Below are positions 1-64,000 of a stretch of DNA of 64,000 bases, one piece after another (the stretch's first letter is position 1; the number at the start of each line of letters is the position of its first letter). This stretch comes from Minisyncoccota bacterium. GTDB taxonomy: Bacteria; Patescibacteriota; Minisyncoccia; UBA6257; 2-01-FULL-56-20. A program made the position numbers and the translations under genes. The notes under the pieces were generated by a model, which saw only the letters and a list, made by a program, of their open reading frames with translations, ran no database searches and was not told where the DNA came from. Where the stretch lies: the NCBI GenBank assembly GCA_035541435.1, contig DATKNL010000010.1, forward strand, positions 94,477 through 158,476, given 5' to 3'.

Positions 1-1336
1 ATTCCGCGGGAGTCATTTTTGCATTCGTTTTCCGTTTCGAAAACCGAGCACGTTGGATTTCCCTGCCTCGCTTTACCTCGGAACGAAGCGTTTCAGTTTC
101 GGAGCGGCGCACGTCAGCGTCTCGGCTTCGTAACATTTCCAAAGAAACCCTTCCGACTGCGATCCGCATGTCGATTCGATCCAAGAGCGGTCCAGAAATC
201 CTTTTTTGATATTTCACGACTTCATAAGCCGTGCACGAGCATGACCGTTCCTTGTCGCCGTAATACCCGCAGGGACAAGGATTCATCGCGGCGATCAGCA
301 TGAAGCCTGCCGGGAACGCGATCCTTCTTCTTGAACGCACGACCTCCATCCGCCCCGCGTCGAGCGGCTGGCGAAGCGCCTCGATTACTCCCCTGCGGAA
401 CTCCGGCAGTTCGTCGATAAAGAGGATGCCCCGATGGGCCAGGCTTATCTCCCCCGGTTTGGGATCCTGTCCCCCGCCGATGAGTGCGACTTGGGAAATC
501 GTATGGTGTGGCGCGCGGAATGGCAGCGATGCGATCAGGCCGTTCGGCTTGAGTCCCGCAGCGCTCCAGATTTTCGTTATCTCGATCGAATCCTCGATGG
601 TCGGCTCAGGCAGGATGCCGACGCAGGCGCTTGCGAGAAGACTTTTCCCAACGCCGGGCGGTCCGATTAGGCAAATGTTATGTTCTCCAGTCAGGGCAAC
701 GAGAAGCGCGCGCTTCGCCGTTTCCTGCCCCTTGACCTCCGAAAAGTCTGGAGCCGTACGGCTGATGAATTTTTTCTTTGTGCGGACTTCTTTCTCGGGT
801 GTTGGTGGCCAGGAATTGATGGCGTCGATTGCCTCGCGGAGTGTTTCTAAAGGTATGACCGTCAATCCTGCGATGACCGAAGCTTCGGCTGCGTTTTCTG
901 AAGGAAGAAAGAGATATTTGAAACGCTCCTTTGCGGCCCGTTCAGCGATGTTAAGGGCGCCCGAAACTCCCCTTAACCGGCCATCAAGCGCCAATTCGCC
1001 TATGAATACGGACGTCCTTTCGTCGAATTTCTTAATTTGGTTTGTTGCCGCTAAATAACCTATGGCAATCGCCAGATCATATTGTGAGCCAGTCTTTCGA
1101 AAGTCAGCCGGCGCCAAATTTATTATTATTTTTCGATTTTCTTGATTTGGGGATTTTATTCCTGTGTTTCTGATGGCGGAATTTACCCGCTCCTTCGCCT
1201 CGTTCAGCGACTTATCGGCAAGACCGACAATTGAAAAATCATGAAGGCCGACATGAACGTCGGCCTCCACCTCGATGATTCTTGCCTCTACCCCTTCTAA
1301 TTCAGCAGAAAAGATCCTCGAAGGCTTTCTAGCCAT
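1..1336 (-). CDS. comM: Mg-chelatase-like AAA+ ATPase, YifB/ComM family. The N-terminal start is at 1336. The C-terminus runs off the window edge.
   Basis: Manual minus-strand translation from the ATG (complement of 1334-1336) gives MARKPSRIFSAELEGVEARIIEVEADVHVGL... It includes a Walker A motif (GPPGVGKS), GILFIDELPEF, and a Cys cluster (NPCPCGYYGDKERSCSCT) typical of the YifB/ComM family. The frame stays open to position 1. It is absent from the ORF track because it is truncated. Confidence 0.8.
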   Translation of the reverse strand, partial: MARKPSRIFSAELEGVEARIIEVEADVHVGLHDFSIVGLADKSLNEAKERVNSAIRNTGIKSPNQENRKIIINLAPADFRKTGSQYDLAIAIGYLAATNQIKKFDERTSVFIGELALDGRLRGVSGALNIAERAAKERFKYLFLPSENAAEASVIAGLTVIPLETLREAIDAINSWPPTPEKEVRTKKKFISRTAPDFSEVKGQETAKRALLVALTGEHNICLIGPPGVGKSLLASACVGILPEPTIEDSIEITKIWSAAGLKPNGLIASLPFRAPHHTISQVALIGGGQDPKPGEISLAHRGILFIDELPEFRRGVIEALRQPLDAGRMEVVRSRRRIAFPAGFMLIAAMNPCPCGYYGDKERSCSCTAYEVVKYQKRISGPLLDRIDMRIAVGRVSLEMLRSRDADVRRSETETLRSEVKRGREIQRARFSKRKTNAKMTPAE

Positions 1337-1380: not shown

Positions 1381-1725
1381 TTACTTGCCTTGCTTATCGT
1401 TTATGCAAAACCGAGATTCCGGGTCTATTTCCAATATGGCCGCTTCAATTGATTTCCCGCATTTTTCACAAATTCCATAAACCCCCTTCGATATCTTATC
1501 CAAAGCCGAAGTTATATCAGAAAGGCGCTTTTTAAGATCTTCGGTTATGGCCATTTGATTGCCAACCTCTTCCGATATATCGGACTCTTCTTCGAAGCGG
1601 ACAACATCGACACCAAGGTCGACGGGTTTTTCATTCCTTTTTATTTCTTCAAGGATCATCACTCGCTCTTTTTCAAGCTTGCTTTTATATTCGCTTAATT
1701 TTTCATTTGTCATAATTGACACCAT
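1381..1725 (-). CDS. DksA/TraR family C4-type zinc-finger protein. The start is uncertain: the track ORF extends to 1812 through a repeat region.
   Basis: There is a coiled-coil N-terminus and a C-terminal motif CEKCGKSIEAAILEIDPESRFC (CxxC-x17-C). The size of about 110 aa fits DksA/TraR. The upstream part of the ORF reads through the TCCGGCAAA repeats and is probably not coding. Confidence 0.55.
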   Translation of the reverse strand: MVSIMTNEKLSEYKSKLEKERVMILEEIKRNEKPVDLGVDVVRFEEESDISEEVGNQMAITEDLKKRLSDITSALDKISKGVYGICEKCGKSIEAAILEIDPESRFCINDKQGK

Positions 1726-1738
1726 AAGATAAAAATTT

Positions 1739-1812
1739 TTATGCGTCAAATCCGGCAAATTATGACAATATTCCGGCAAAAAATCCGGCAAAAATATTCC
1801 GGCAAACTTCAT
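1739..1812. repeat. Four direct copies of (T)TCCGGCAAA spaced 13-15 bp apart in an AT-rich spacer.
   Basis: The sequence reads atccggcaaattatgacaatattccggcaaaaaatccggcaaaaatattccggcaaac. An inverted copy (ttgccgaa) lies at about 1832. Confidence 0.6.
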
Positions 1813-1892
1813 TAAAAAATCATTAAAATTGCCGAATTAAAAATCATAAAAATATCCAATAAACATAGATTTTCTCTAGTGATAAACAAAAA

Positions 1893-2182
1893 TGTTTTTC
1901 AGAATGTTTGTCGCTAAACAACCCATAATTCATTTTCCGATGTTTAGCGCTAAACATCCATTAATTCATTTAAAATTGTTTAGCGTGAAACATTTATAAA
2001 ATAATTAGCGAATGTTTGTCGCTAAACAACCAATAATTCATTTTAGGATGTTTGTCGCTAAACATCCTAAAAATCATTTATAGAAACAGATGAAACTGAA
2101 AAACAATTTCAGAATGTTTGTCGCTAAACATCCCATAATTCATTTTTGGAGTGTTTAGCGCTAAACATCAATTAATTCATTT
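1893..2182. repeat. Iteron-like tandem array. It has about seven 35-40-bp direct repeats, each carrying the palindrome TGTTTAGCGCTAAACA (or the variant TGTTTGTCGCTAAACA) followed by cc-ATAATTCATTT. It ends exactly at the yraN start codon.
   Basis: The units were read directly at about 1898, 1938, 1976 (degenerate), 2011, 2047, 2108 and 2149. GTTTAGCGCTAAAC is a perfect 14-bp palindrome. The region is AT-rich within a GC-rich genome. Confidence 0.7.
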
Positions 2183-2560
2183 ATGGAAAATAGGAAACTG
2201 GGACGACTCGGAGAAGAGATTGCTTTAAGATATCTCTTAAAAACGAAGCACGTCATCATTGAAAGAAACTTCAAGAAGAAATTTGGCGAGATAGACATAA
2301 TAGCTCGATCCATTGATGGGATGCTCATTTTTTGCGAAGTGAAGACCATGGCTTTCGGTGACTCTGCTCAGATGAACATATTTAAGCCGAGCGATCGCAT
2401 CAACTTCAAAAAGATTCAACACATGAGACGGATGGCCCGCTTTTATTCATTAAAGAATTCAAGCCTGGTTTTCGACATCGGTTGGCGCATTGACGCGATT
2501 TCGGTTTTTATAAAGAGCGAGCACAAAGCAGACGTCGTGCACTTCAAAAACATCGCTTGA
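2183..2560 (+). CDS. yraN: YraN family (UPF0102) predicted endonuclease.
   Basis: The product is 125 aa and reads LGRLGEEIALRYL...GEIDIIA...LIFCEVKT, the YraN/UPF0102 signature. Confidence 0.75.
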   Translation: MENRKLGRLGEEIALRYLLKTKHVIIERNFKKKFGEIDIIARSIDGMLIFCEVKTMAFGDSAQMNIFKPSDRINFKKIQHMRRMARFYSLKNSSLVFDIGWRIDAISVFIKSEHKADVVHFKNIA

Positions 2561-5393: not shown

Positions 5394-5413
5394 ATCGTGG
5401 TAGAATCAAGCCA

Positions 5414-8583: not shown

Positions 8584-9201
8584 TTGCTAGAAATAGGGTA
8601 TTCAATGGACAGAATTTCACGACGGACGAAGGCCCTTGTGGCCTTCATTATTCTTGTAGCGGGCGGGTTTGCGATCACGGTCGTGTGGGGGAGCAGGAAT
8701 CAGGTTCCCGAGGCGTTCACCGACGCCCGCTTGCAGGGCGCCCTCATTTCCCAGACGATCGTAGGCATTTCGAATTCCTCGACCCAGGAGCTCGCCGAGA
8801 TCAACGCGCTTGACCGGAGCGGGAACTACGCCCAGGCGCTTTCCCTTACGACCGACCTCGTGAACCAGAGCCAGCAGCTCCGGGACCAGGGGGTCAAGCT
8901 GTCGAATCAGGTCGGGACGATGACGCAGAGCCTGTCGAGCATCAATTCGTTCTATGCGCAGCAGGCGGCGCTCGAGTCGATCTCGAGCCGGCTCGCGCTC
9001 ATCAACCAGCTCATAACCTATAGCAACGACCTTGACCGGCTGCTCGCCGTGCTTCAGGCGCGTTTTTCGGGAACCTATGAGCCCGCCGGGACCGTGCAGG
9101 GCATCGTTGACCAGATCAACACCGACGTGAACGCGATCAACAACTTCAACACGCAGGCGGAGCAGGCGATGGATCAGTTTGATAAGATAGTGAACAAGTA
9201 G
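8584..9201 (+). CDS. Hypothetical membrane-anchored protein. It has an N-terminal TM helix and a Q/N/S-rich coiled-coil extracytoplasmic region.
   Basis: The TM segment reads ALVAFIILVAGGFAITVVW. The alternative start is MDRISRR at 8605. Confidence 0.5.
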   Translation: MLEIGYSMDRISRRTKALVAFIILVAGGFAITVVWGSRNQVPEAFTDARLQGALISQTIVGISNSSTQELAEINALDRSGNYAQALSLTTDLVNQSQQLRDQGVKLSNQVGTMTQSLSSINSFYAQQAALESISSRLALINQLITYSNDLDRLLAVLQARFSGTYEPAGTVQGIVDQINTDVNAINNFNTQAEQAMDQFDKIVNK

Positions 9202-9272
9202 GGCGCGTAGCTCAACGGCAGAGCAGACGTCTTATACACGTCCGGTTCCTGGTTCGAATCCAGGCGCGCCCA
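9201..9272 (+). tRNA. tRNA-Ile with anticodon UAU, which decodes AUA.
   Basis: It folds as a canonical cloverleaf: acceptor GGGCGCG/CGCGCCC, D-stem GCTC/GAGC, anticodon stem GACGT/ACGTC, loop CTTATAC (U33, anticodon TAT, A37), T-arm CCTGG-TTCGAAT-CCAGG, discriminator A. Confidence 0.8.
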
Positions 9273-9299
9273 CATCGCGTTCCGCACCCCGCGCAATCA

Positions 9300-14196: not shown

Positions 14197-15002
14197 TCAT
14201 CGACGGCAAGGCCATCGCGCAGGGAGTCGTCAGGCGCCTTTCGGCGCTCCCGCGTCCGCAGAAGTTTTTCGGCGCGGCGCTCGTGGGCGACGATCCGGCG
14301 TCGGTCAATTTTCTCAAACAGAAGGAACGCGTGGCGAAGGAGCTCGGCGTCGAGTTCCGTCTTTACCATCTTTCGGATTCGATGACGACCGACGACCTTC
14401 GCCGCGAGATCGGGCGTCTTGCCGAACCGAAAAACTGCGGAGGGTTCATCGTGCAGCTTCCGCTTCCCGAGCGCGTGAACCGGCATTACGTGCTGAACGC
14501 GATCCCGAAGGACAAGGATGCCGACTGCCTTGGCGAGCCGGCGCTCGGCGCGTTCTATACCGAGCGGGGGACTGTCGCGCCGCCGTCGGTCGGCGTCGTC
14601 GAACAGATCCTGCAGCTCGAGCACATGAATCTTCGCGAAAAGAAAGTCGTCATGGTGGGTGCGGGGTTCCTCATCGGGAAGCCGATCGGCTTCTGGCTGC
14701 AGAACCGGGTTTCGGAACTCGTCGTGCTCGACGTGCACGTGAAGAATCTCGACGAAAAGCTGCGGGACGCCGACATCGTCATCAGCGGCGCCGGTCACGC
14801 GGGATTGTTTGGCGCCAAACAATTGAAAGAGGGGGCGCTCGTCATTGATTTCGGGTTCAATCAGCACGACGGCAAAATCATGGGGGACTTCGATTCCGAA
14901 GGCGCCGAGGACCGGCGGATCAGCTATACGAAAACCCCCGGCGGTACCGGACCGATCCTCGTCGCCGAACTGTTCGACAATTTCTATAAGCTGAACGGAT
15001 AG
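14193..15002 (+). CDS. folD: Bifunctional methylenetetrahydrofolate dehydrogenase/cyclohydrolase.
   Basis: The sequence reads MIIDGKAIAQ...VQLPLP...VVMVGAGFLIGKP...TPGGTGPILVAELF. It overlaps the upstream gene by 4 nt. Confidence 0.85.
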   Translation: MIIDGKAIAQGVVRRLSALPRPQKFFGAALVGDDPASVNFLKQKERVAKELGVEFRLYHLSDSMTTDDLRREIGRLAEPKNCGGFIVQLPLPERVNRHYVLNAIPKDKDADCLGEPALGAFYTERGTVAPPSVGVVEQILQLEHMNLREKKVVMVGAGFLIGKPIGFWLQNRVSELVVLDVHVKNLDEKLRDADIVISGAGHAGLFGAKQLKEGALVIDFGFNQHDGKIMGDFDSEGAEDRRISYTKTPGGTGPILVAELFDNFYKLNG

Positions 15003-18942: not shown

Positions 18943-19039
18943 GAGGAACAGTATAGCAGGGAAATTTGAAATTGCAAATGGTTTTGAGGCCCGAAACGCC
19001 GTTGAAATTGAGGTTTTTTTCTGCTAAAATAGGAGGGTC

Positions 19040-23940: not shown

Positions 23941-24408
23941 ATGAAAACGGCAGGACGCATCATCCTTTTCGCATCGGTCGTCGCGCTCGCCGTCGTGCCG
24001 CTCTTTGCGCGCGCCGACAACGCGTCAGGCATCCCGTATTGGGCGAACGGGGGATTGCTCTCGTGCACCGGCAACTACGTGAACGGCGCCCATCCCTGCA
24101 CGAGCGTCTGCGACCTCATCCAGACGATCGTGAACGTCATCTATTTCGGCATCACGATCTGCCTCTTCGTGCTCGCGCCGATCTTCTTCACGATCGGCGG
24201 CGTCATGCTCATGGTTTCCGGCGCGAACCCCGAGATGATGAGCCGCGGCAAGGGCATCCTGCTGAACACCGTGATCGGCGTCGTGATCGTGCTCTGCTCC
24301 TATCTCATCGTCTTCACGTTCGTGAACGTGTTCGGCGCCTCGGTGAATGGCCAACCGGCATTCAATTCGACCTTTTCATGCGTGCCGCAGTATCCGACAG
24401 GACAATGA
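23941..24408 (+). CDS. VirB2/TrbC-like pilin family protein, paralog 1.
   Basis: It has a signal peptide, a conserved Cys (SVCDLIQ), and two hydrophobic helices separated by GANPEMMSRGKG. This topology and Cys motif are shared with the other four paralogs and with the VirB2 motif NNICTFILG. Confidence 0.55.
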   Translation: MKTAGRIILFASVVALAVVPLFARADNASGIPYWANGGLLSCTGNYVNGAHPCTSVCDLIQTIVNVIYFGITICLFVLAPIFFTIGGVMLMVSGANPEMMSRGKGILLNTVIGVVIVLCSYLIVFTFVNVFGASVNGQPAFNSTFSCVPQYPTGQ

Positions 24409-24409
24409 G

Positions 24410-25222
24410 ATGAGGAAGGCCCTGCTCGGCGCGGTCATCGGTGCGGCGGCCCTCGTGCCGTTCGCCGCGCTTGCGCAGACGCCGGGCCCGACGCCCATCT
24501 CGCTCTCGTTTCCCGGACAGTATATCGTGACGACGAGCACGCCGCCGGGCTATCTCATTTCGAACTTCTATCACTTCATGATCCTGGCGGGCGCGCTCAT
24601 CGCGCTCGGCGCGATCGTCTATGGCGGCATCAAATATGTCATTTCAGCCGGCAATCCGTCCGGGCAGAGCGACGCGAAAGAGCGGCTTGCCGACGCGTTT
24701 CTCGGGCTTACGCTCCTTGTCTGCGCCTATCTCGTGCTCTACACGATCAACCCAAACCTTGTCGAACTCGGCCTGCCGAACCTGAGTCCGATCAGCGTCG
24801 CGACGCCGCCGCAGACGGGCGGCGGCACGCCCTATGCGCCCGGAACGCCGACCGGAGTCGGGTGCGCCGGCGGGCAGTGCAGCACGCTGCCGAACTGCAC
24901 GCCGTCCGCGCGCGTGAACTGCGGCGGCGCCGCGGAGATGGTGTCGGCCATGCAGTGCATTCAGGCGAAGGACCCGAACTTCTCGGTTTCGGAAGGGTAT
25001 CCGCCGACGGGCGCCCATCAATCGAAATGCCATAGCAACGGCTGCTGCATCGACACGGTCGTTCCGGGATCGAGTTGCGCGGCGGTGAACGCGCTCATTC
25101 AGGCGGCGCAATCATGCGGGGCAAGCGTCGCGAACGAATACACGAACTGCAACGGAACGTCCTATGCGCACACGACGGGCGGCAACGTCCATATCAACGC
25201 GCCGCATATCAACGGATGCTGA
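24410..25222 (+). CDS. VirB2/TrbC-like pilin family protein, paralog 2, with a Cys-rich C-terminal extension.
   Basis: It has the signal peptide MRKALLGAVIGAAALVPFAALA and a two-helix core with AGNPSGQSDAKER. A roughly 130-aa tail follows, carrying at least 14 Cys (GCAGGQCSTLPNCTPS...NGCCID...). Confidence 0.55.
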   Translation: MRKALLGAVIGAAALVPFAALAQTPGPTPISLSFPGQYIVTTSTPPGYLISNFYHFMILAGALIALGAIVYGGIKYVISAGNPSGQSDAKERLADAFLGLTLLVCAYLVLYTINPNLVELGLPNLSPISVATPPQTGGGTPYAPGTPTGVGCAGGQCSTLPNCTPSARVNCGGAAEMVSAMQCIQAKDPNFSVSEGYPPTGAHQSKCHSNGCCIDTVVPGSSCAAVNALIQAAQSCGASVANEYTNCNGTSYAHTTGGNVHINAPHINGC

Positions 25223-25232
25223 TTCGAACACC

Positions 25233-25751
25233 ATGAGATCCCGCATCGTCACCATCATCATCGGCGTCATCGTGATCATCGGTTTTGCGATCTATCTGAT
25301 CTTCGGGCGGAGCGGCGGAACGGCCGGATCGGGGACCGGTGCGGGCGTCGGATCTTCGGGGACCGTCGATGGCACGCCCGTCACGGTGAGTCAGGCCTAT
25401 CCGGACGCCCCGACGACCGATCGGATTTCGATCGGGACCGCGGCCGGCATCGTCCAGGTCGCCAATTTCTATGAGGCAAGCGGGACGACCGTGGGCGACG
25501 ACGGCGTGCTCGTCATCAGCCGCGGCGCGGGATATTGGATCACCTATGACCCGTCGGACAGCAGCTTCTGGGTCGCGGTTTCGGGGACGCCGTTCGAGTC
25601 GGTCCGCCAGGCGGCCGAAGCCGACTTTCTCGCCGCGCTCGGCGTGAGCCGGGGCGATGCGTGCAAGCTTGCCGTTTCGGTCGGCGCGCCCTATGCTGCA
25701 GGGAGCGCCCTCAACGGCCAATCCTTCCCCCTGAGCTTCTGCCCGCACTAG
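25233..25751 (+). CDS. Hypothetical membrane-anchored Gly/Ser/Thr-rich protein.
   Basis: It has the N-terminal TM IVTIIIGVIVIIGFAIYLIF and then a soluble domain. It is embedded within the pilin-like array. Confidence 0.45.
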   Translation: MRSRIVTIIIGVIVIIGFAIYLIFGRSGGTAGSGTGAGVGSSGTVDGTPVTVSQAYPDAPTTDRISIGTAAGIVQVANFYEASGTTVGDDGVLVISRGAGYWITYDPSDSSFWVAVSGTPFESVRQAAEADFLAALGVSRGDACKLAVSVGAPYAAGSALNGQSFPLSFCPH

Positions 25752-25764
25752 CCGATAGTTTATA

Positions 25765-26121
25765 ATGAAAGGAATGCAACCCCTGCGGAAATTCGCCTCG
25801 AACGCCCTTGCAGCAGCCGCGCTTTTCGCGGCGGCGGCGAACATCGCCGTGGCCCAGTCCATCACGCTGCCGAACCCGATCGGCACGACGAGCTGGGCGG
25901 ATGTTGCCGGCAAGATCGTCAACGTCATCTTCGTCGATATCGCCATTCCGTTGTGCACCATCATGGCTCTCGTTGGCGGGTTCCAGCTCATGACATCGGC
26001 CGGCGAGCCTGAAAAGGCATCCCGCGGAAGAAAGACACTCTTATATGCCGCCCTGGGGTTCGGCGTCGTGCTGTGCGCCACCGGAATCGCAAGTCTGCTT
26101 CAGAACCTCCTGACTCCCTAA
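25765..26121 (+). CDS. VirB2/TrbC-like pilin family protein, paralog 3.
   Basis: It has a signal peptide, the motif PLCTIMALVGGFQLMTSAGEPEKASRGRKTLLYAALGFGVVL, and a two-helix hairpin. Confidence 0.55.
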   Translation: MKGMQPLRKFASNALAAAALFAAAANIAVAQSITLPNPIGTTSWADVAGKIVNVIFVDIAIPLCTIMALVGGFQLMTSAGEPEKASRGRKTLLYAALGFGVVLCATGIASLLQNLLTP

Positions 26122-26142
26122 AGTCGAACAATCAAAATAACC

Positions 26143-26547
26143 ATGAAAAAAATATCTTTGTCATTGAAGCTCCTCGGATCGTTCGTTGCTGGTTTGCAAG
26201 GATTTGCGGTTGTCGCACATGCTGCTCAATTCGACTCCAATTCCCAGGTGCAGGCTCCCATACAGAACGAAAGCAATCTCCAGCAGTTGTTTTGCAATAT
26301 CATCAGCTGGTTCTTTTGGATTATCATCGTGATCTCGGTCATCATGGTCCTTATGGCGGCGTTCACCTATGTGACGGCCCGGGGCGACGAAGAGAAGACG
26401 ACGCGCGCGAGAAGGACGATCACCTATGCCGCCATTGGCGTTGCGGTTGCGTTTATCGCGGCCGGATTCCCATCCGTCGTAGCAAGCGTCTTCCCGAACA
26501 TGTCTTCCGTGTCACCTGTCAGCCTGACAAAGGTCTGCGCTTTCTAG
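26143..26547 (+). CDS. VirB2/TrbC-like pilin family protein, paralog 4.
   Basis: It has a signal peptide and the motif QLFCNIISWFFWIIIVISVIMVLMAAFTYVTARGDEEKTTRARRTITYAAIGVAVAF. Confidence 0.55.
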   Translation: MKKISLSLKLLGSFVAGLQGFAVVAHAAQFDSNSQVQAPIQNESNLQQLFCNIISWFFWIIIVISVIMVLMAAFTYVTARGDEEKTTRARRTITYAAIGVAVAFIAAGFPSVVASVFPNMSSVSPVSLTKVCAF

Positions 26548-26610
26548 AAAAGGGAATGATGTGCTACACTGACTAAGTACCCAGGAAAGGTCGAATATTC
26601 CTCAAATTCC

Positions 26611-27003
26611 ATGAAGAACGTTATTGGTTTTGCGAAGACCTACGGCCCGGCGATCACGGCGTTCGTGCTCCCGGCGCTTGCGTTCGCTCAACCCGTCGCC
26701 GTTCCTCCGGGTTCCGGCGGAAACACCGTCCCGGGAACGAGCATCACGAGCCTGCAGAGCGTCCTCAACCTGCTCTGCAACATCTTCGGATGGGCCTTCT
26801 GGTTCCTGATCGTCCTTGCCGTCATTTTCGTCATCGTCGCCGCGTTCCGCTATCTCATGGCGGGTGGCAATCCTGAAAATGTCGGAAAGGCCGGCAGCAC
26901 GCTGCTTTATGCGGCGGTTGCGATTGGCGTCGCACTCCTCGCGCGCGCTGTTCCGCTTGTCGTCGGCAGCTTCCTCGGCGCCGGACAGGTGACGTCCTGC
27001 TAG
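26611..27003 (+). CDS. VirB2/TrbC-like pilin family protein, paralog 5.
   Basis: It has a signal peptide and the motif NLLCNIFGWAFWFLIVLAVIFVIVAAFRYLMAGGNPENVGKAGSTLLYAAVAIGVAL. Confidence 0.55.
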   Translation: MKNVIGFAKTYGPAITAFVLPALAFAQPVAVPPGSGGNTVPGTSITSLQSVLNLLCNIFGWAFWFLIVLAVIFVIVAAFRYLMAGGNPENVGKAGSTLLYAAVAIGVALLARAVPLVVGSFLGAGQVTSC

Positions 27004-37298: not shown

Positions 37299-37391
37299 AG
37301 GCCTATTATACCAGGGCGATTGTTAAAAACATATTAAAAACCGCAGGCGTATTCCCCTGCGGTTTCCTTTCGGCGGCGGATTCGCGAGTCC

Positions 37392-55861: not shown

Positions 55862-56338
55862 ATGGACCTCTTGGAATACGATGACGAGATGACGGGTGAG
55901 ATCATGGATGCGATAGAGAACCTGGCGCTCATGACCCAGCGCGAGTTCGTCGCTTTGCGTGCGGAGATGCAGGAATTCAAAGAGGACCTCAAGCTTGAGC
56001 TCAAGGCCGAGCTGAAGGCCGAGCTGCGGGCGGAGTTCAAGGCCGACATCAGGACCGAGCTGCGGCCGGAGCTCCTTGCCGAATTCCAGGCGGCCCTGAA
56101 TGCGCTGAAGGCCGAACTGCACGAGGAGCTCTATAGCGGATTCACAGTCCTGCGCAACAAGATTGATGGGGATATCGCGAGCCTGCGGCATGAGACGGCG
56201 CTCGGATTCGCGGGCATGAGGAGCGAGGCCGACGAGATTCGGCAGGAAATGAGGGTCGGATTTGCCGCCGTCAGCTCGATTCTGAGCGATCACGAATGCC
56301 GGACGGAACGGCTCGAGAAAAACACCGATTTTACCTGA
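55862..56338 (+). CDS. Hypothetical coiled-coil protein with tandem ELKAELRAEF-type heptad repeats.
   Basis: It is a 158-aa ORF reading LKLELKAELKAELRAEFKADIRTELRPELLAEFQAAL. Confidence 0.4.
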   Translation: MDLLEYDDEMTGEIMDAIENLALMTQREFVALRAEMQEFKEDLKLELKAELKAELRAEFKADIRTELRPELLAEFQAALNALKAELHEELYSGFTVLRNKIDGDIASLRHETALGFAGMRSEADEIRQEMRVGFAAVSSILSDHECRTERLEKNTDFT

Positions 56339-61765: not shown

Positions 61766-62008
61766 ATGGCCCGACGCTATGGCAGAAAATCGCAGCAGAA
61801 GGTGAAGCGCGCGATGCACGAAATGAAGCGCGGCAAGCTTAAAAGCGGCCGCAGCGGCAAGACGGTCCGCAGCCGAAAACAGGCCATCGCCATCGGTCTT
61901 TCCGAGGCGCGCCGATCGGGCGCAAAGGTTCCGCCGGCGCCGAAGCGAGGAAGGGGACGAGGGCGGTCCTCTACCCGCACCCGCAAACGCTCAAGGAAAA
62001 GCAGATAA
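61766..62008 (+). CDS. Hypothetical small highly basic protein.
   Basis: It is an 80-aa Lys/Arg-rich ORF overlapping the 5' end of the peptidase ORF on the opposite strand. No family was recognised. Confidence 0.35.
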   Translation: MARRYGRKSQQKVKRAMHEMKRGKLKSGRSGKTVRSRKQAIAIGLSEARRSGAKVPPAPKRGRGRGRSSTRTRKRSRKSR

Positions 62009-62070
62009 TTTTTCGTCGCGCCTCTCACTTGAACCGCCGGACGGAGTGCGGTACCCTTAGGTGTCATTTT

Positions 62071-62157
62071 GGAGGCGTGGCCGAGTGGCTTAAGGCAGCA
62101 TCCTGCTAAGATGTTAGGGGAGAAATCCCCTCGAAGGTTCGAATCCTTCCGCCTCCG
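62071..62157 (+). tRNA. tRNA-Ser (GCU), type II.
   Basis: It has acceptor GGAGGCG/CGCCTCC, anticodon loop CTGCTAA, a long variable arm, T-arm GAAGG-TTCGAAT-CCTTC and discriminator G. Confidence 0.85.
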
Positions 62158-62287
62158 CAGACAAGGTAAAAGTATCGTAGCAACCGTCTTATATAGCTTC
62201 TTAGTGCGACCGCCCTACCCGAGGACAGGAGGACGGCCGAACTTTTTGATTTTTAATTTGTCTAATTCTGGGCTTTGATCCTTCGGG

Positions 62288-62920
62288 TTAAAATACCATC
62301 TTCGTATCTCCCCATCCTCCTTTCGGAGAGAACTCTCCGGCGATGGCACGCTCGTGTATTTCCCACGGCGTAGCGCCCGCTTCGCGTGCTTCCACTAATT
62401 TGTCGGGATCGACGGGTGTTATTTTCGGTTCCATCGTTTTAATATGCTCCGTCGCGGTCTCCCACGAGCTGTAATTGTTGACGAAGATCTCTACGTTGTT
62501 TCCGTCGGGATCCATCCAATAGAACGACGTGCCCACGCCGTGGTCGGCCGCCCAGACCGGCTTGATGCCTTCGTCCTTCAGGCGCACGTAGGTGCCCAAG
62601 AGGTCATCCAAGGTAGGAATTTCAAATGCCACGTGTTGCAGCCTGAGATGTTTTTGCTTGTCGGGGTCAGTTTTGACGCCCTTAACTTCGAAGAGGACGA
62701 TGCGGTGATCCACCTCGTCATTGCCCATAAACGTTGCGGCCGAAAAGGGTGAAAATTGACGCGCAACAAGCCCCACTTCCGAACGATGATTTACGTTCAT
62801 CCCTAATACCCTACGGTACCACTTTGCCATAGCATCCATGTTGGCGGTGACGAGCCCGTAATGCATCAGTTTGGGATGAGCGATGACTTCTGCGTTAAAT
62901 TTATTATTTTTTGTACTCAT
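62288..62920 (-). CDS. VOC family protein (glyoxalase/bleomycin-resistance/extradiol dioxygenase fold).
   Basis: It has two betaabetabetabeta modules (HYGLVTANMDAMAKWYRRVLG and HVAFEIPTLDDL). Confidence 0.65.
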   Translation of the reverse strand: MSTKNNKFNAEVIAHPKLMHYGLVTANMDAMAKWYRRVLGMNVNHRSEVGLVARQFSPFSAATFMGNDEVDHRIVLFEVKGVKTDPDKQKHLRLQHVAFEIPTLDDLLGTYVRLKDEGIKPVWAADHGVGTSFYWMDPDGNNVEIFVNNYSSWETATEHIKTMEPKITPVDPDKLVEAREAGATPWEIHERAIAGEFSPKGGWGDTKMVF

Positions 62921-62950
62921 TGGTTTATTTATATTTAATTAGTTTATATT

Positions 62951-62967
62951 ATCTTAGTTGCTAAGAT
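62951..62967. promoter_or_regulatory. Palindromic operator (7-3-7) in the divergent VOC/MarR intergenic region.
   Basis: ATCTTAG-TTG-CTAAGAT is a perfect inverted repeat in an AT-rich spacer. It matches the typical pseudo-palindromic architecture of a MarR binding site. Confidence 0.55.
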
Positions 62968-63005
62968 ATTTACATGGTAAGCGATGTCTGCTATCCTTGT
63001 CAAAT

Positions 63006-63470
63006 ATGGAAAAAGGCCGACTTTTACAGAATTTAGGACAGGCCATGATGGGCCTCAGCAACGAGCAGATCCTACTCCATCAGGCCGTTGCCGACGCGCT
63101 TGGCCTTAATATCACGGATCACAAATGTGTGAACCTTATTGCGCGGTTCAATCCCATGACCGCAGGTAAGCTTGCAGAACTCACCGGCCTCACCACGGGA
63201 GCAATCACAGGCGTCATCGACCGGCTCGAGAAAGGCGGCTATGCAAAGAGAATCCTCGACCCCAACGACAGGCGCGTGACCGTCGTCGAACTGACCAAGA
63301 AAGGAGAATCGATCAGCAAGATATTCTTGCCGCTGGTTAAGAAAATGGGAAAAGCGTTTGAAGCATTTAGCGACAAAGAACTGGCTGTTATTCTCAAGTT
63401 TGTAACTCTCGCCGCGGAAACTTCTCATGATGCGGCGAAGGAACTCAGGAAGAAAAGCGGAAAGAAATAA
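63006..63470 (+). CDS. MarR family transcriptional regulator.
   Basis: It has a winged-helix region (MTAGKLAELTGLTTGAITGVIDRLEKGGYAKRILDPNDRRVTVVELT). Confidence 0.8.
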   Translation: MEKGRLLQNLGQAMMGLSNEQILLHQAVADALGLNITDHKCVNLIARFNPMTAGKLAELTGLTTGAITGVIDRLEKGGYAKRILDPNDRRVTVVELTKKGESISKIFLPLVKKMGKAFEAFSDKELAVILKFVTLAAETSHDAAKELRKKSGKK

Positions 63471-63603
63471 GGAGAACTCTCCATGGGAGAATAAATCGGT
63501 AAGTTCGAATCCTCCCGCCGATATGGATAAATTAAAAAACTCAATAAAATCAATGGGATGGCACCAGGGCGACCGAGACGGTTCGAATACTGCCGCCCCC
63601 GCC

Positions 63604-63643
63604 ATGCTAAAAAAGACACTCATATGAGTGTCTGTTTTAGCAT
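63604..63643. terminator. Long perfect hairpin flanked by A-tracts and T-tracts (bidirectional terminator-like).
   Basis: The sequence atgctaaaa-aagacactca-ta-tgagtgtct-gttttagcat is a nested perfect inverted repeat. Confidence 0.6.
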
Positions 63644-64000
63644 TTGTTGAGATGAAGGATTCGAACAGCGGAGGGGGTCGGGGAACCGCGATCGGTTCCC
63701 CGTGTCGGAGAGCCGCTGAGAACCGAGGGTTCTGAGGGTGCGAGCATAGCGAACGATGTTCGATTCCCTTCCGCCTTCGCCAGCGGCGGATTTGGAAAAA
63801 CCAGGGCTTCGTCAATTAAAAAAATAGCTTCTACTTTTTTGTAGAAGCTATCCGTTCTTGCGACGGTTAACCCGTCAGAACAAAGTCAATCCGTACCATA
63901 CCCTGCCATCGCAGCAAGTTGATGGGGATCGCTGATGCGCGATCCAGCATCGAACCGGTCACGATATCGGTAGTCGAAATCGAACGATGTGCGGAGCACT

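Follow-up and report, generated by a model that had tools for sequence, protein, structure and literature searches.

In the F-plasmid centromere sopC, 12 units of 43 bp each carry a 16-bp inverted repeat that is bound by SopB, and the lac operators O1, O2 and O3 form a multi-operator repressor system with auxiliary intragenic operators. Here we describe a tandem array of dyad sites in a 64-kb stretch of DNA (hereafter the window) that belongs to a metagenome contig of 158.7 kb, annotated by NCBI as Candidatus Paceibacterota, a lineage of the candidate phyla radiation (CPR). The array, whose repeated element is the 16-bp dyad TGTTTnnCGnnAAACA, lies directly upstream of yraN (encoding a PD-(D/E)xK nuclease), in the spacer that separates this gene from a divergent dksA-like gene and comM (encoding a Mg-chelatase-like helicase). 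In sequence, the nearest described sites are the parS site of ParB (Spo0J), which in its canonical form reads TGTTNCACGTGAAACA (PMC7022226), and the operators of RK2, namely OA for KorA (TGTTTAGCTAAACA) and OB for KorB (TTTAGCGGCTAAA; PMC11790492). The array is a familiar type of binding-site array with a new motif and in a new setting, and not a new kind of system. Very little is known of gene regulation or chromosome organisation in the CPR (Patescibacteria), which are mostly uncultured and thought to depend on DNA uptake; the locus provides a clade-conserved non-coding signal between comM and yraN, made up of a 12-position dyad, a lead-in block of ~95 nt and a second family of boxes.

The array shares with parS a 16-bp dyad, TGTTT..CG..AAACA, which is identical to the canonical site at all 12 positions that are invariant in the array and its relatives. 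Arrays of parS on viral contigs have a comparable spacing of ~20–60 bp (modes at 30–34 bp there and 35–39 bp here), can lie far from parB and occasionally include intragenic sites. Unlike in parS, the central CA/TG pairs are free in the array, which has a fixed promoter-region position and polarity and no parAB genes within 10 kb. Centromeres of the sopC type are likewise composed of head-to-tail units of a few tens of base pairs, with one short inverted repeat each and no unique-sequence spacers; this repeat architecture is found here, but plasmid location and adjacent parAB or sopAB genes are not, as the array is chromosomal (the contig has gyrA, gyrB, recA, nusA and transfer RNA (tRNA) genes). 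The arms of OA (TGTTTAG/CTAAACA) are identical to those of the two perfect units of the array, and OB shares TTTAGC/GCTAAA; given that OA and OB both share arms with the perfect units, unrelated helix-turn-helix dimers can read such arms. Similar to the array, OA and OB are located at or near promoters, where they mediate repression (PMC11790492). However, the gap between their half-sites is shorter by 2 bp in OA and by 1 bp in OB, they are plasmid-borne single sites, the OA-like AG at positions 6–7 of the array is not conserved in relatives, and no KorA- or KorB-like gene was seen. As in lac-type systems, several dyad sites surround a promoter, and three relatives have an extra exact site a few hundred base pairs inside yraN; unlike in lac, there are up to eight tandem copies, no repressor is encoded alongside and one site lies 12–25 kb away. 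Origins of replication (oriC) and iteron regions resemble the spacer in being AT-rich, in lying between divergent genes and in having two repeat families (one in both orientations), but the spacer has no skew inversion, initiator gene or DnaA boxes, and its main repeat is palindromic rather than direct.

A conserved dyad array upstream of yraN

A first-pass annotation, made from the sequence alone, had described an AT-rich spacer of ~450 bp between a DksA/TraR-like gene and yraN. The spacer measures 469 bp (1714–2182) and has a guanine–cytosine (GC) content of 26–29%, compared with ~60% for the genome. Seven 16-mers TGTTTnnCGnnAAACA start at 1905, 1941, 1977, 2013, 2049, 2115 and 2152 (the last ending at 2167), where shuffled sequences predict 0.08 matches by chance, and their starts are 36, 36, 36, 36, 66 and 37 bp apart. 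Each 16-mer is followed after 3–4 nt by a ATAATTCATTT-like stretch, and the final unit reaches the yraN ATG at 2183, consistent with the earlier account of seven tandem units of which the last ends at the start codon. The accompanying statement that every unit contains a perfect palindrome of 14–16 bp needs correction: the perfect 16-bp palindrome TGTTTAGCGCTAAACA is present in two units (1941 and 2152), and the others (TGTTTGTCGCTAAACA in four, TGTTTAGCGTGAAACA in one) are imperfect variants with symmetry limited to positions 1–5, 8–9 and 12–16. The units form two sub-arrays (five and two units) split by a partial duplicate of the lead-in block. The exact sites and the lead-in copies in the window are as follows.

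1850–1936, plus strand: lead-in block, degenerate in the window, holding an everted pair and the first palindrome (nhmmer, E = 6e-13)
1905–2064, plus strand: sub-array 1, five 36-bp units, each comprising TGTTTnnCGnnAAACA, 3–4 nt and an AT-rich −10-like hexamer
2095–2149, plus strand: partial second lead-in copy that opens sub-array 2 (nhmmer, model positions 40–101, E = 1.8e-5)
2115–2182, plus strand: sub-array 2, two units, with the last palindrome at 2152–2167
14804–14823, no strand assigned: isolated site in folD, a 20-bp perfect palindrome ATTGTTTGGCGCCAAACAAT within the codons L F G A K Q (folD identified by Pfam)

The everted pair of the lead-in block, AAACA-N4-TGTTT, occupies 1884–1897. 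The hexamers of sub-array 1 read CATAAT, ATTAAT, TATAAA, AATAAT and TAAAAA, and in the final unit of sub-array 2 an ATTAAT hexamer (2171–2176) lies 6 nt before the yraN ATG. An identical array and spacer recur in L002, an independent assembly of a different sample, indicating that the array is not a one-off assembly artefact. Clustered regularly interspaced short palindromic repeats (CRISPR), already discounted in the first-pass annotation, would have unique spacers of similar length between the repeats; here the units are contiguous, and the 20 nt that separate the palindromes are repeated as well.

Relatives were gathered in three ways (the YraN protein, exact look-ups of DksA-like homologues and a DksA-like alignment scanned against metagenomes), yielding 24 non-redundant loci with the divergent arrangement (comM and the dksA-like gene on one side, yraN and nusA on the other). 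Most relatives retain the array upstream of yraN, at a conserved position relative to the gene start: the spacer of 16 of the 24 loci has TGTTTnnCGnnAAACA in 1–8 exact copies, and that of most others has degenerate copies. The YraN proteins of these relatives are only 35–45% identical to that of the window, and the retention of the element over such divergence indicates that it is under selection. Once corrected, the repeats noted in the first-pass annotation are robust on both statistical and phylogenetic grounds. Across 54 exact sites, T1 G2 T3 T4 T5, C8 G9 and A12 A13 A14 C15 A16 are invariant and positions 6, 7, 10 and 11 are free, with centres that differ by lineage (for example, GTCGAC in L007, CGCGCG in L012 and TACGGA in L013). 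The sequence between sites and the copy number (0–8) also vary by lineage, and start-to-start spacing is mostly 34–38 bp, then 43–47 bp and 53–56 bp, with some gaps of 82–116 bp. The units all point the same way, and a T/A-rich TTAAAAT-like element stands at +20 to +26 toward yraN. In every carrying locus the sites are on the yraN side of the spacer and the last palindrome ends 13–50 nt before the yraN ATG. TGTTT/AAACA elements stay beside the yraN start even where yraN and dksA are in tandem (L039) or ~1 kb apart (L047).

The lead-in block was modelled as an nhmmer profile of ~95 nt built from 18 loci. It is found once per locus (in most relatives with E values of 1e-14 to 1e-22); AAACA-N4-TGTTT always stands ahead of the first palindrome, and AAAACCCGATAAGCCCGTAAAACCTA lies further upstream. 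One relative (L032, reverse strand, ~200–700) has three lead-in copies and eight palindromes over ~650 bp, which implies that the whole module can duplicate and not just the 36-bp unit.

Beyond the array, the motif is not dispersed. The only other exact match in the 64 kb is an eighth copy at 14806–14821 inside folD, 12.6 kb from the array. The orthologous folD codons in the L003 genome keep the exact motif (TGTTTGGCGCTAAACA), with the only difference at a free position, whereas codon identity elsewhere in folD between the window and L003 is 40%; the site is absent from three other relatives. In ~300 kb of clade sequence, only four exact sites lie outside the spacer, three of which are inside yraN, <300 bp from the array, in three relatives.

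Promoter geometry and a candidate operator

Shine–Dalgarno sequences are almost absent window-wide, and none precedes yraN. Many genes (recA, tyrS, the S1 gene, the HTH_25 gene, gyrB and the dksA-like gene) have a −10 hexamer at −12/−13 from the ATG (a gap of 6–7 nt), often TGn-extended, a pattern that suggests that leaderless messenger RNAs are widespread in this organism. Leaderless-type −10 elements can be seen, for example, at 37299–37345, 5394–5413 and 18943–18960. yraN itself lacks a canonical −35 element; relative to its ATG, the last dyad spans approximately −31 to −16 and ATTAAT spans −12 to −7, and a leaderless yraN start at this last unit is possible. A general TGTTT-N-TAnAAT promoter consensus for the window was considered and dropped: beyond the array (its units and a minus-strand internal match) and position 1343, only recA fits.

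We tentatively interpret the array as an operator array for a dimeric DNA-binding protein, overlapping the −10-like elements of the yraN promoter or promoters. A binding-site array for a dimeric protein, which the first-pass annotation had put forward in general form, gains support from the invariant dyad core in 54 sites alongside freely changing spacers. The recognised element would be the dyad TGTTTnnCGnnAAACA, read by a sequence-specific dimeric protein, and each unit would couple this dyad to an AT-rich −10-like hexamer 3–5 bp downstream, such that the dyad would occupy roughly −32 to −17 of each potential promoter. Because the dyad spans this region and no canonical −35 is present, a bound protein would cover the core promoter(s) of yraN. 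Such a protein would most likely repress the potentially harmful YraN nuclease until it is needed; alternatively, it may activate transcription from a site between −35 and −10, as some regulators do. Extra units would have arisen by tandem duplication and would raise occupancy or cooperativity. Under this operator interpretation, the protein would control yraN and possibly also the divergent dksA-like–comM operon.

YraN has been reported to be a PD-(D/E)xK single-strand endonuclease required for natural transformation and the nuclease partner of the ComM helicase, with the two forming a co-evolving, interacting pair that is needed for transformation and was recently proposed to process transformation displacement loops (D-loops); yraN and comM are co-localised in 34% of the genomes that have both (bioRxiv 10.1101/2024.02.06.579203). 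Given this partnership, the spacer is probably the shared control region of the helicase–nuclease pair, and shared control of yraN and comM is plausible because the two are reported to co-evolve and interact. The array could serve as bait for the first regulator of transformation genes in the CPR.

Several observations weigh against an operator array. There is no gene for a DNA-binding protein beside it, which is unusual for a local multi-operator system, and the neighbouring hypothetical proteins have no family matches, leaving no candidate regulator encoded nearby (a structure model of the conserved neighbouring 102-amino-acid zinc-ribbon protein has a predicted local distance difference test (pLDDT) score of 44). 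The immediate neighbours are the DksA-like protein (which binds RNA polymerase, not DNA) and YraN, which we considered and judged unlikely as the reader of a 16-bp dyad, given that Legionella pneumophila YraN is reportedly a monomer whose site specificity is highly relaxed (bioRxiv 10.1101/2024.02.06.579203). The autoregulated operator mentioned in the first-pass annotation gains no support from these neighbours. An exact folD site kept in two lineages, 12–25 kb away, is unexpected for a local operator. The −10-like element carries little information (0.5–0.9 bit per position, against an AT-rich background), and L021, L022 and L032 do not have it. Finally, seven tandem promoter–operator modules are hard to explain by simple repression.

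The parS likeness and other explanations

The main alternative, which we regard as unlikely, is a ParB-family loading or centromere-like array composed of a parS variant with a relaxed centre. A CTP (cytidine triphosphate)-dependent clamp would nucleate on the palindromes and then act in chromosome organisation or segregation, or silence neighbouring promoters in a KorB-like manner. The identity to parS at the 12 invariant positions speaks for this, as does the TGTTTCGCGCGAAACA site of L012, which matches parS at 14 of 16 positions; the best match in the window is also 14/16 (unit 3). Judged by its sequence, the array is built on a relaxed version of parS. The parS-like character suggested in the first-pass annotation therefore applies to these 12 positions and does not extend to the other four: the full central CACGTG of parS is not found, and positions 6, 7, 10 and 11, near-invariant in real parS arrays, vary (AG, GT, GG, TA, CG and others), even within one genome (AG, GT, GG and CA half-sites).

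A scan of IMG/VR for two dyads of this class 15–45 nt apart returned 109 contigs with 350 sites (loci L095–L203), of which 336 are canonical TGTTTCACGTGAAACA with the CACGTG centre. These arrays are found on viral or plasmid-like contigs and have 2–6 copies with ~20–60 bp spacing, mostly 30–44 bp. A ParB gene was detected by tblastn in the fetched stretch of only one of the 109 contigs, which makes tandem dyad arrays without an adjacent parB a common, known architecture; the contigs may exploit the ParB of their hosts. The array in the window falls in the same spacing range as these canonical arrays, which need not adjoin parB. ParB loading would also be in line with the exact intragenic sites in folD (two lineages) and yraN, with the widespread occurrence of ParB in Patescibacteria and with the location of comM and dksA 2–3 kb from parA–parB in more distant Paceibacterota. 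However, parA and parB are absent from the 64-kb window and, in every clade member, from the 10 kb around the locus, and no ParB from the same contigs is among the top 120 matches of a ParB search. In L005 and L009 only one half-site survives, and a centromere would have no use for the fixed polarity or the neighbouring −10-like element. Nor is the locus at the skew minimum. The distant loci in which the dksA-like gene and comM lie 2–3 kb from parA–parB are L257 (4638–11080, also near topA and dprA), L048 (1067–5327) and L053; no parS-like site was found next to parAB in any of these three.

It is also conceivable, though we consider it rather improbable, that a ParB-family CTPase clamp or a paralogue of relaxed specificity has been recruited to a parS-derived array and silences yraN and comM in the manner of KorB. 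If true, this recruitment would link the chromosome-partition machinery to the control of transformation in the CPR, and folD would represent a second loading site. As an alternative to its use as bait for a regulator, the array may show parS-type specificity drifting in nature, at those positions by which ParB, Noc and KorB sites differ.

We see little likelihood that the units are tandem promoters or a slippage-prone repeat with no dedicated binder, in which the dyad would be part of an unusual promoter (for example, of an alternative sigma factor) and copy number would be neutral. Copy number (0–8) and spacing (34–115 bp) do vary widely between lineages, the units carry −10-like hexamers, and competence genes elsewhere often use dedicated sigma factors. 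Nevertheless, strict two-fold symmetry at 12 positions is not a property of sigma-factor promoters, the dyad is still symmetric inside the coding sequences of folD and yraN, and the everted AAACA-N4-TGTTT of the lead-in block points to half-site recognition.

Very improbable is an RNA-level element, in which the 5′ leader of yraN and nusA would fold into hairpins that work as tandem weak terminators or attenuators or that are recognised by an RNA-binding protein. Unit 5 folds into a 14-bp hairpin with a T-rich tail after it (−15 kcal/mol, z = −7.7), complementarity between positions 6 and 11 is seen in 20/33 cases compared with 9.6 predicted by shuffled half-sites, and G–T combinations outnumber A–C combinations 10 to 2 on the yraN strand. 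By contrast, five of the seven units fold no better than shuffled sequences (−2 to −4 kcal/mol), positions 7 and 10 have no pairing signal and the invariant CG would fall in the loop. L005 and L021 keep the sequence without the pairing, and RNAalifold on the lead-in block gives −2 kcal/mol with no consensus structure and no covariation. In addition, a separate promoter and terminator-like leader serve nusA downstream of yraN. The stable hairpin, U-tract and conserved pairing of a terminator or attenuator are not a feature of the array, as only unit 5 qualifies, and Rfam has no match at the array, with only nine tRNAs in the window reaching the gathering score.

We attach equally little credence to a replication origin or plasmid-like iteron region, an option raised in the first-pass annotation, in which an initiator would recognise the boxes and unwinding would take place in the AT-rich stretch. 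The spacer is AT-rich and lies between divergent genes, there are two kinds of repeat (one in both orientations in relatives) and the cumulative GC skew of the window is lowest near 2 kb. This dip is local, covering no more than the dksA-like gene and the 5′ end of comM, and the sign of the skew is unchanged across the locus: top-strand GC skew is positive for window genes of both strands (+0.03 and +0.07) and for genes 5–10 kb to the left, and skew at third codon positions (GC3 skew) agrees in sign between the two sides of the spacer in 4/5 genomes. From the skew, the origin is placed >10 kb leftward of the spacer. Pfam scans of the window gave no dnaA, dnaN or rep gene (nor parA or parB), the clade loci likewise have none of these replication genes, tblastn with DnaA returned nothing, and no TTATCCACA-like DnaA box is visible in the spacer sequence. 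The contig also carries housekeeping genes and hence is chromosomal. As the skew keeps its sign and initiator genes are absent, we reject an origin or terminus at this locus. A LexA/SOS box (the motif is absent from the recA upstream region), a dif/Xer site or DNA uptake sequence (the architecture and single-locus distribution argue against each) and a mobile-element origin (no similarity in plasmid or phage collections, with specific 16-mers giving only isolated single IMG/VR matches) were likewise discarded.

The dksA-like promoter and the gene neighbourhood

The genes that flank the spacer, and the elements on its dksA side, are as follows.

1–1335, minus strand: comM (Mg-chelatase-like helicase), 5′ part only in the window (ChlI, Mg_chelatase and Mg_chelatase_C in the L001 gene table)
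1381–1713, minus strand: dksA-like gene, 110 amino acids (NCBIfam DksA_like over the full length at E = 2.5e-18, below the curated cut-off; weak Pfam zf-dskA_traR)
1721–1749, minus strand: sigma-70-type promoter of the dksA-like gene (promoter scan: TTGACG, 17 bp, TATGGT, 7 nt to the ATG)
1751–1837, plus strand: box cluster, four TCCGGCAAA and an inverted degenerate TTGCCGAAT, directly upstream of the dksA −35
2183–2560, plus strand: yraN (UPF0102, PD-(D/E)xK nuclease; Pfam UPF0102 at E = 2.9e-19, NCBIfam YraN models, motifs GEIDII and CEVK)

The promoter layout TTGACN-17-TATCCT/TATCTT-7-ATG (also with TATGGT) is conserved upstream of the dksA-like gene in most relatives, and the transcript predicted from a promoter 7 nt before the ATG would be leaderless. 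Four TCCGGCAAA boxes start at 1751, 1772, 1784 and 1798, compared with 0.9 expected in the whole window; these are the four direct repeats of the first-pass annotation (1751–1806), to which a fifth, inverted and degenerate copy (TTGCCGAAT, 1829–1837) can be added. Relatives have 1–6 (A)ATCCGGCAA boxes, in both orientations, between the lead-in block and the dksA-like gene; the boxes of this promoter region are also written AATCCGGCAA. The boxes are a second, separate conserved element, with a probable regulatory role at the dksA-like promoter. In the public gene call (P0001), the dksA-like protein has 143 amino acids and starts at 1812, so that the TCCGGCAAA repeats are translated. All 58 DksA-like homologues (58/58) have ~110 amino acids and start with MTxEKL, which makes the public start doubtful; the call is probably too long, the true start being at 1713. 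Annotation pipelines can thus mis-start genes across such repeats.

Other repeats were seen around related genes. In a distant relative with yraN, dksA and comM in tandem (L039, 780–845), a CCGGCAA/TTGCCGG box cluster is located inside the intact yraN frame, in a variable loop of the protein. A locus of different synteny whose DksA-like protein is 49% identical (L014, 9870–10010) has repeated GGAGGTTGGACCTC palindromes upstream of the dksA-like gene instead of these motifs. Five dispersed perfect palindromes of 16–18 bp, with the core CTTCCCTATAGGGAAG and in four cases extending to ACTTCCCTATAGGGAAGT, lie within 1.5 kb downstream of dksA–comM in L053 (6947–8408).

On the minus strand, the gene order is a PKD-domain gene, rsmA, uvrD, a LysM-M23 gene, comM and the dksA-like gene, with comM downstream of the latter. 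On the plus strand, the spacer is followed by yraN, nusA, ppa, clpP and tyrS, and Pfam scans of the rest of the 64 kb identified gyrA, gyrB, recA, ftsK, an xerC-like gene, pnp, clpB, nusG and folD. A canonical nusA promoter (TTGACA-17-TAGTAT) overlaps the 3′ end of yraN (2557–2627) and is followed, just before the nusA ATG at 2628, by a terminator-like hairpin CCGCTTCGAAGCGG with a T-tract, which could be a NusA-autoregulatory attenuator; TTGACA is likewise found at the yraN stop in L003.

Elsewhere in the window, a tRNA-Ile with the anticodon UAU (tat; 9201–9273) indicates a mode of AUA decoding that is unusual for bacteria. Three small T4SS_pilin (PF18895) genes lie at 24347–27003, downstream of gyrA and a solute-binding-protein gene, in an arrangement that is shared with L253 and L255. 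An in-frame tandem repeat of 12/36 nt (GAGCTCAAGGCC...; 55997–56074) is part of a hypothetical gene of 158 amino acids just upstream of gyrB. At the end of the window (62001–64000), GC content falls to ~50% just after a tRNA-Ser (62071–62158) and a 15-bp AT-rich tandem repeat occurs at 62928–62959; this segment could be an island or integration site.

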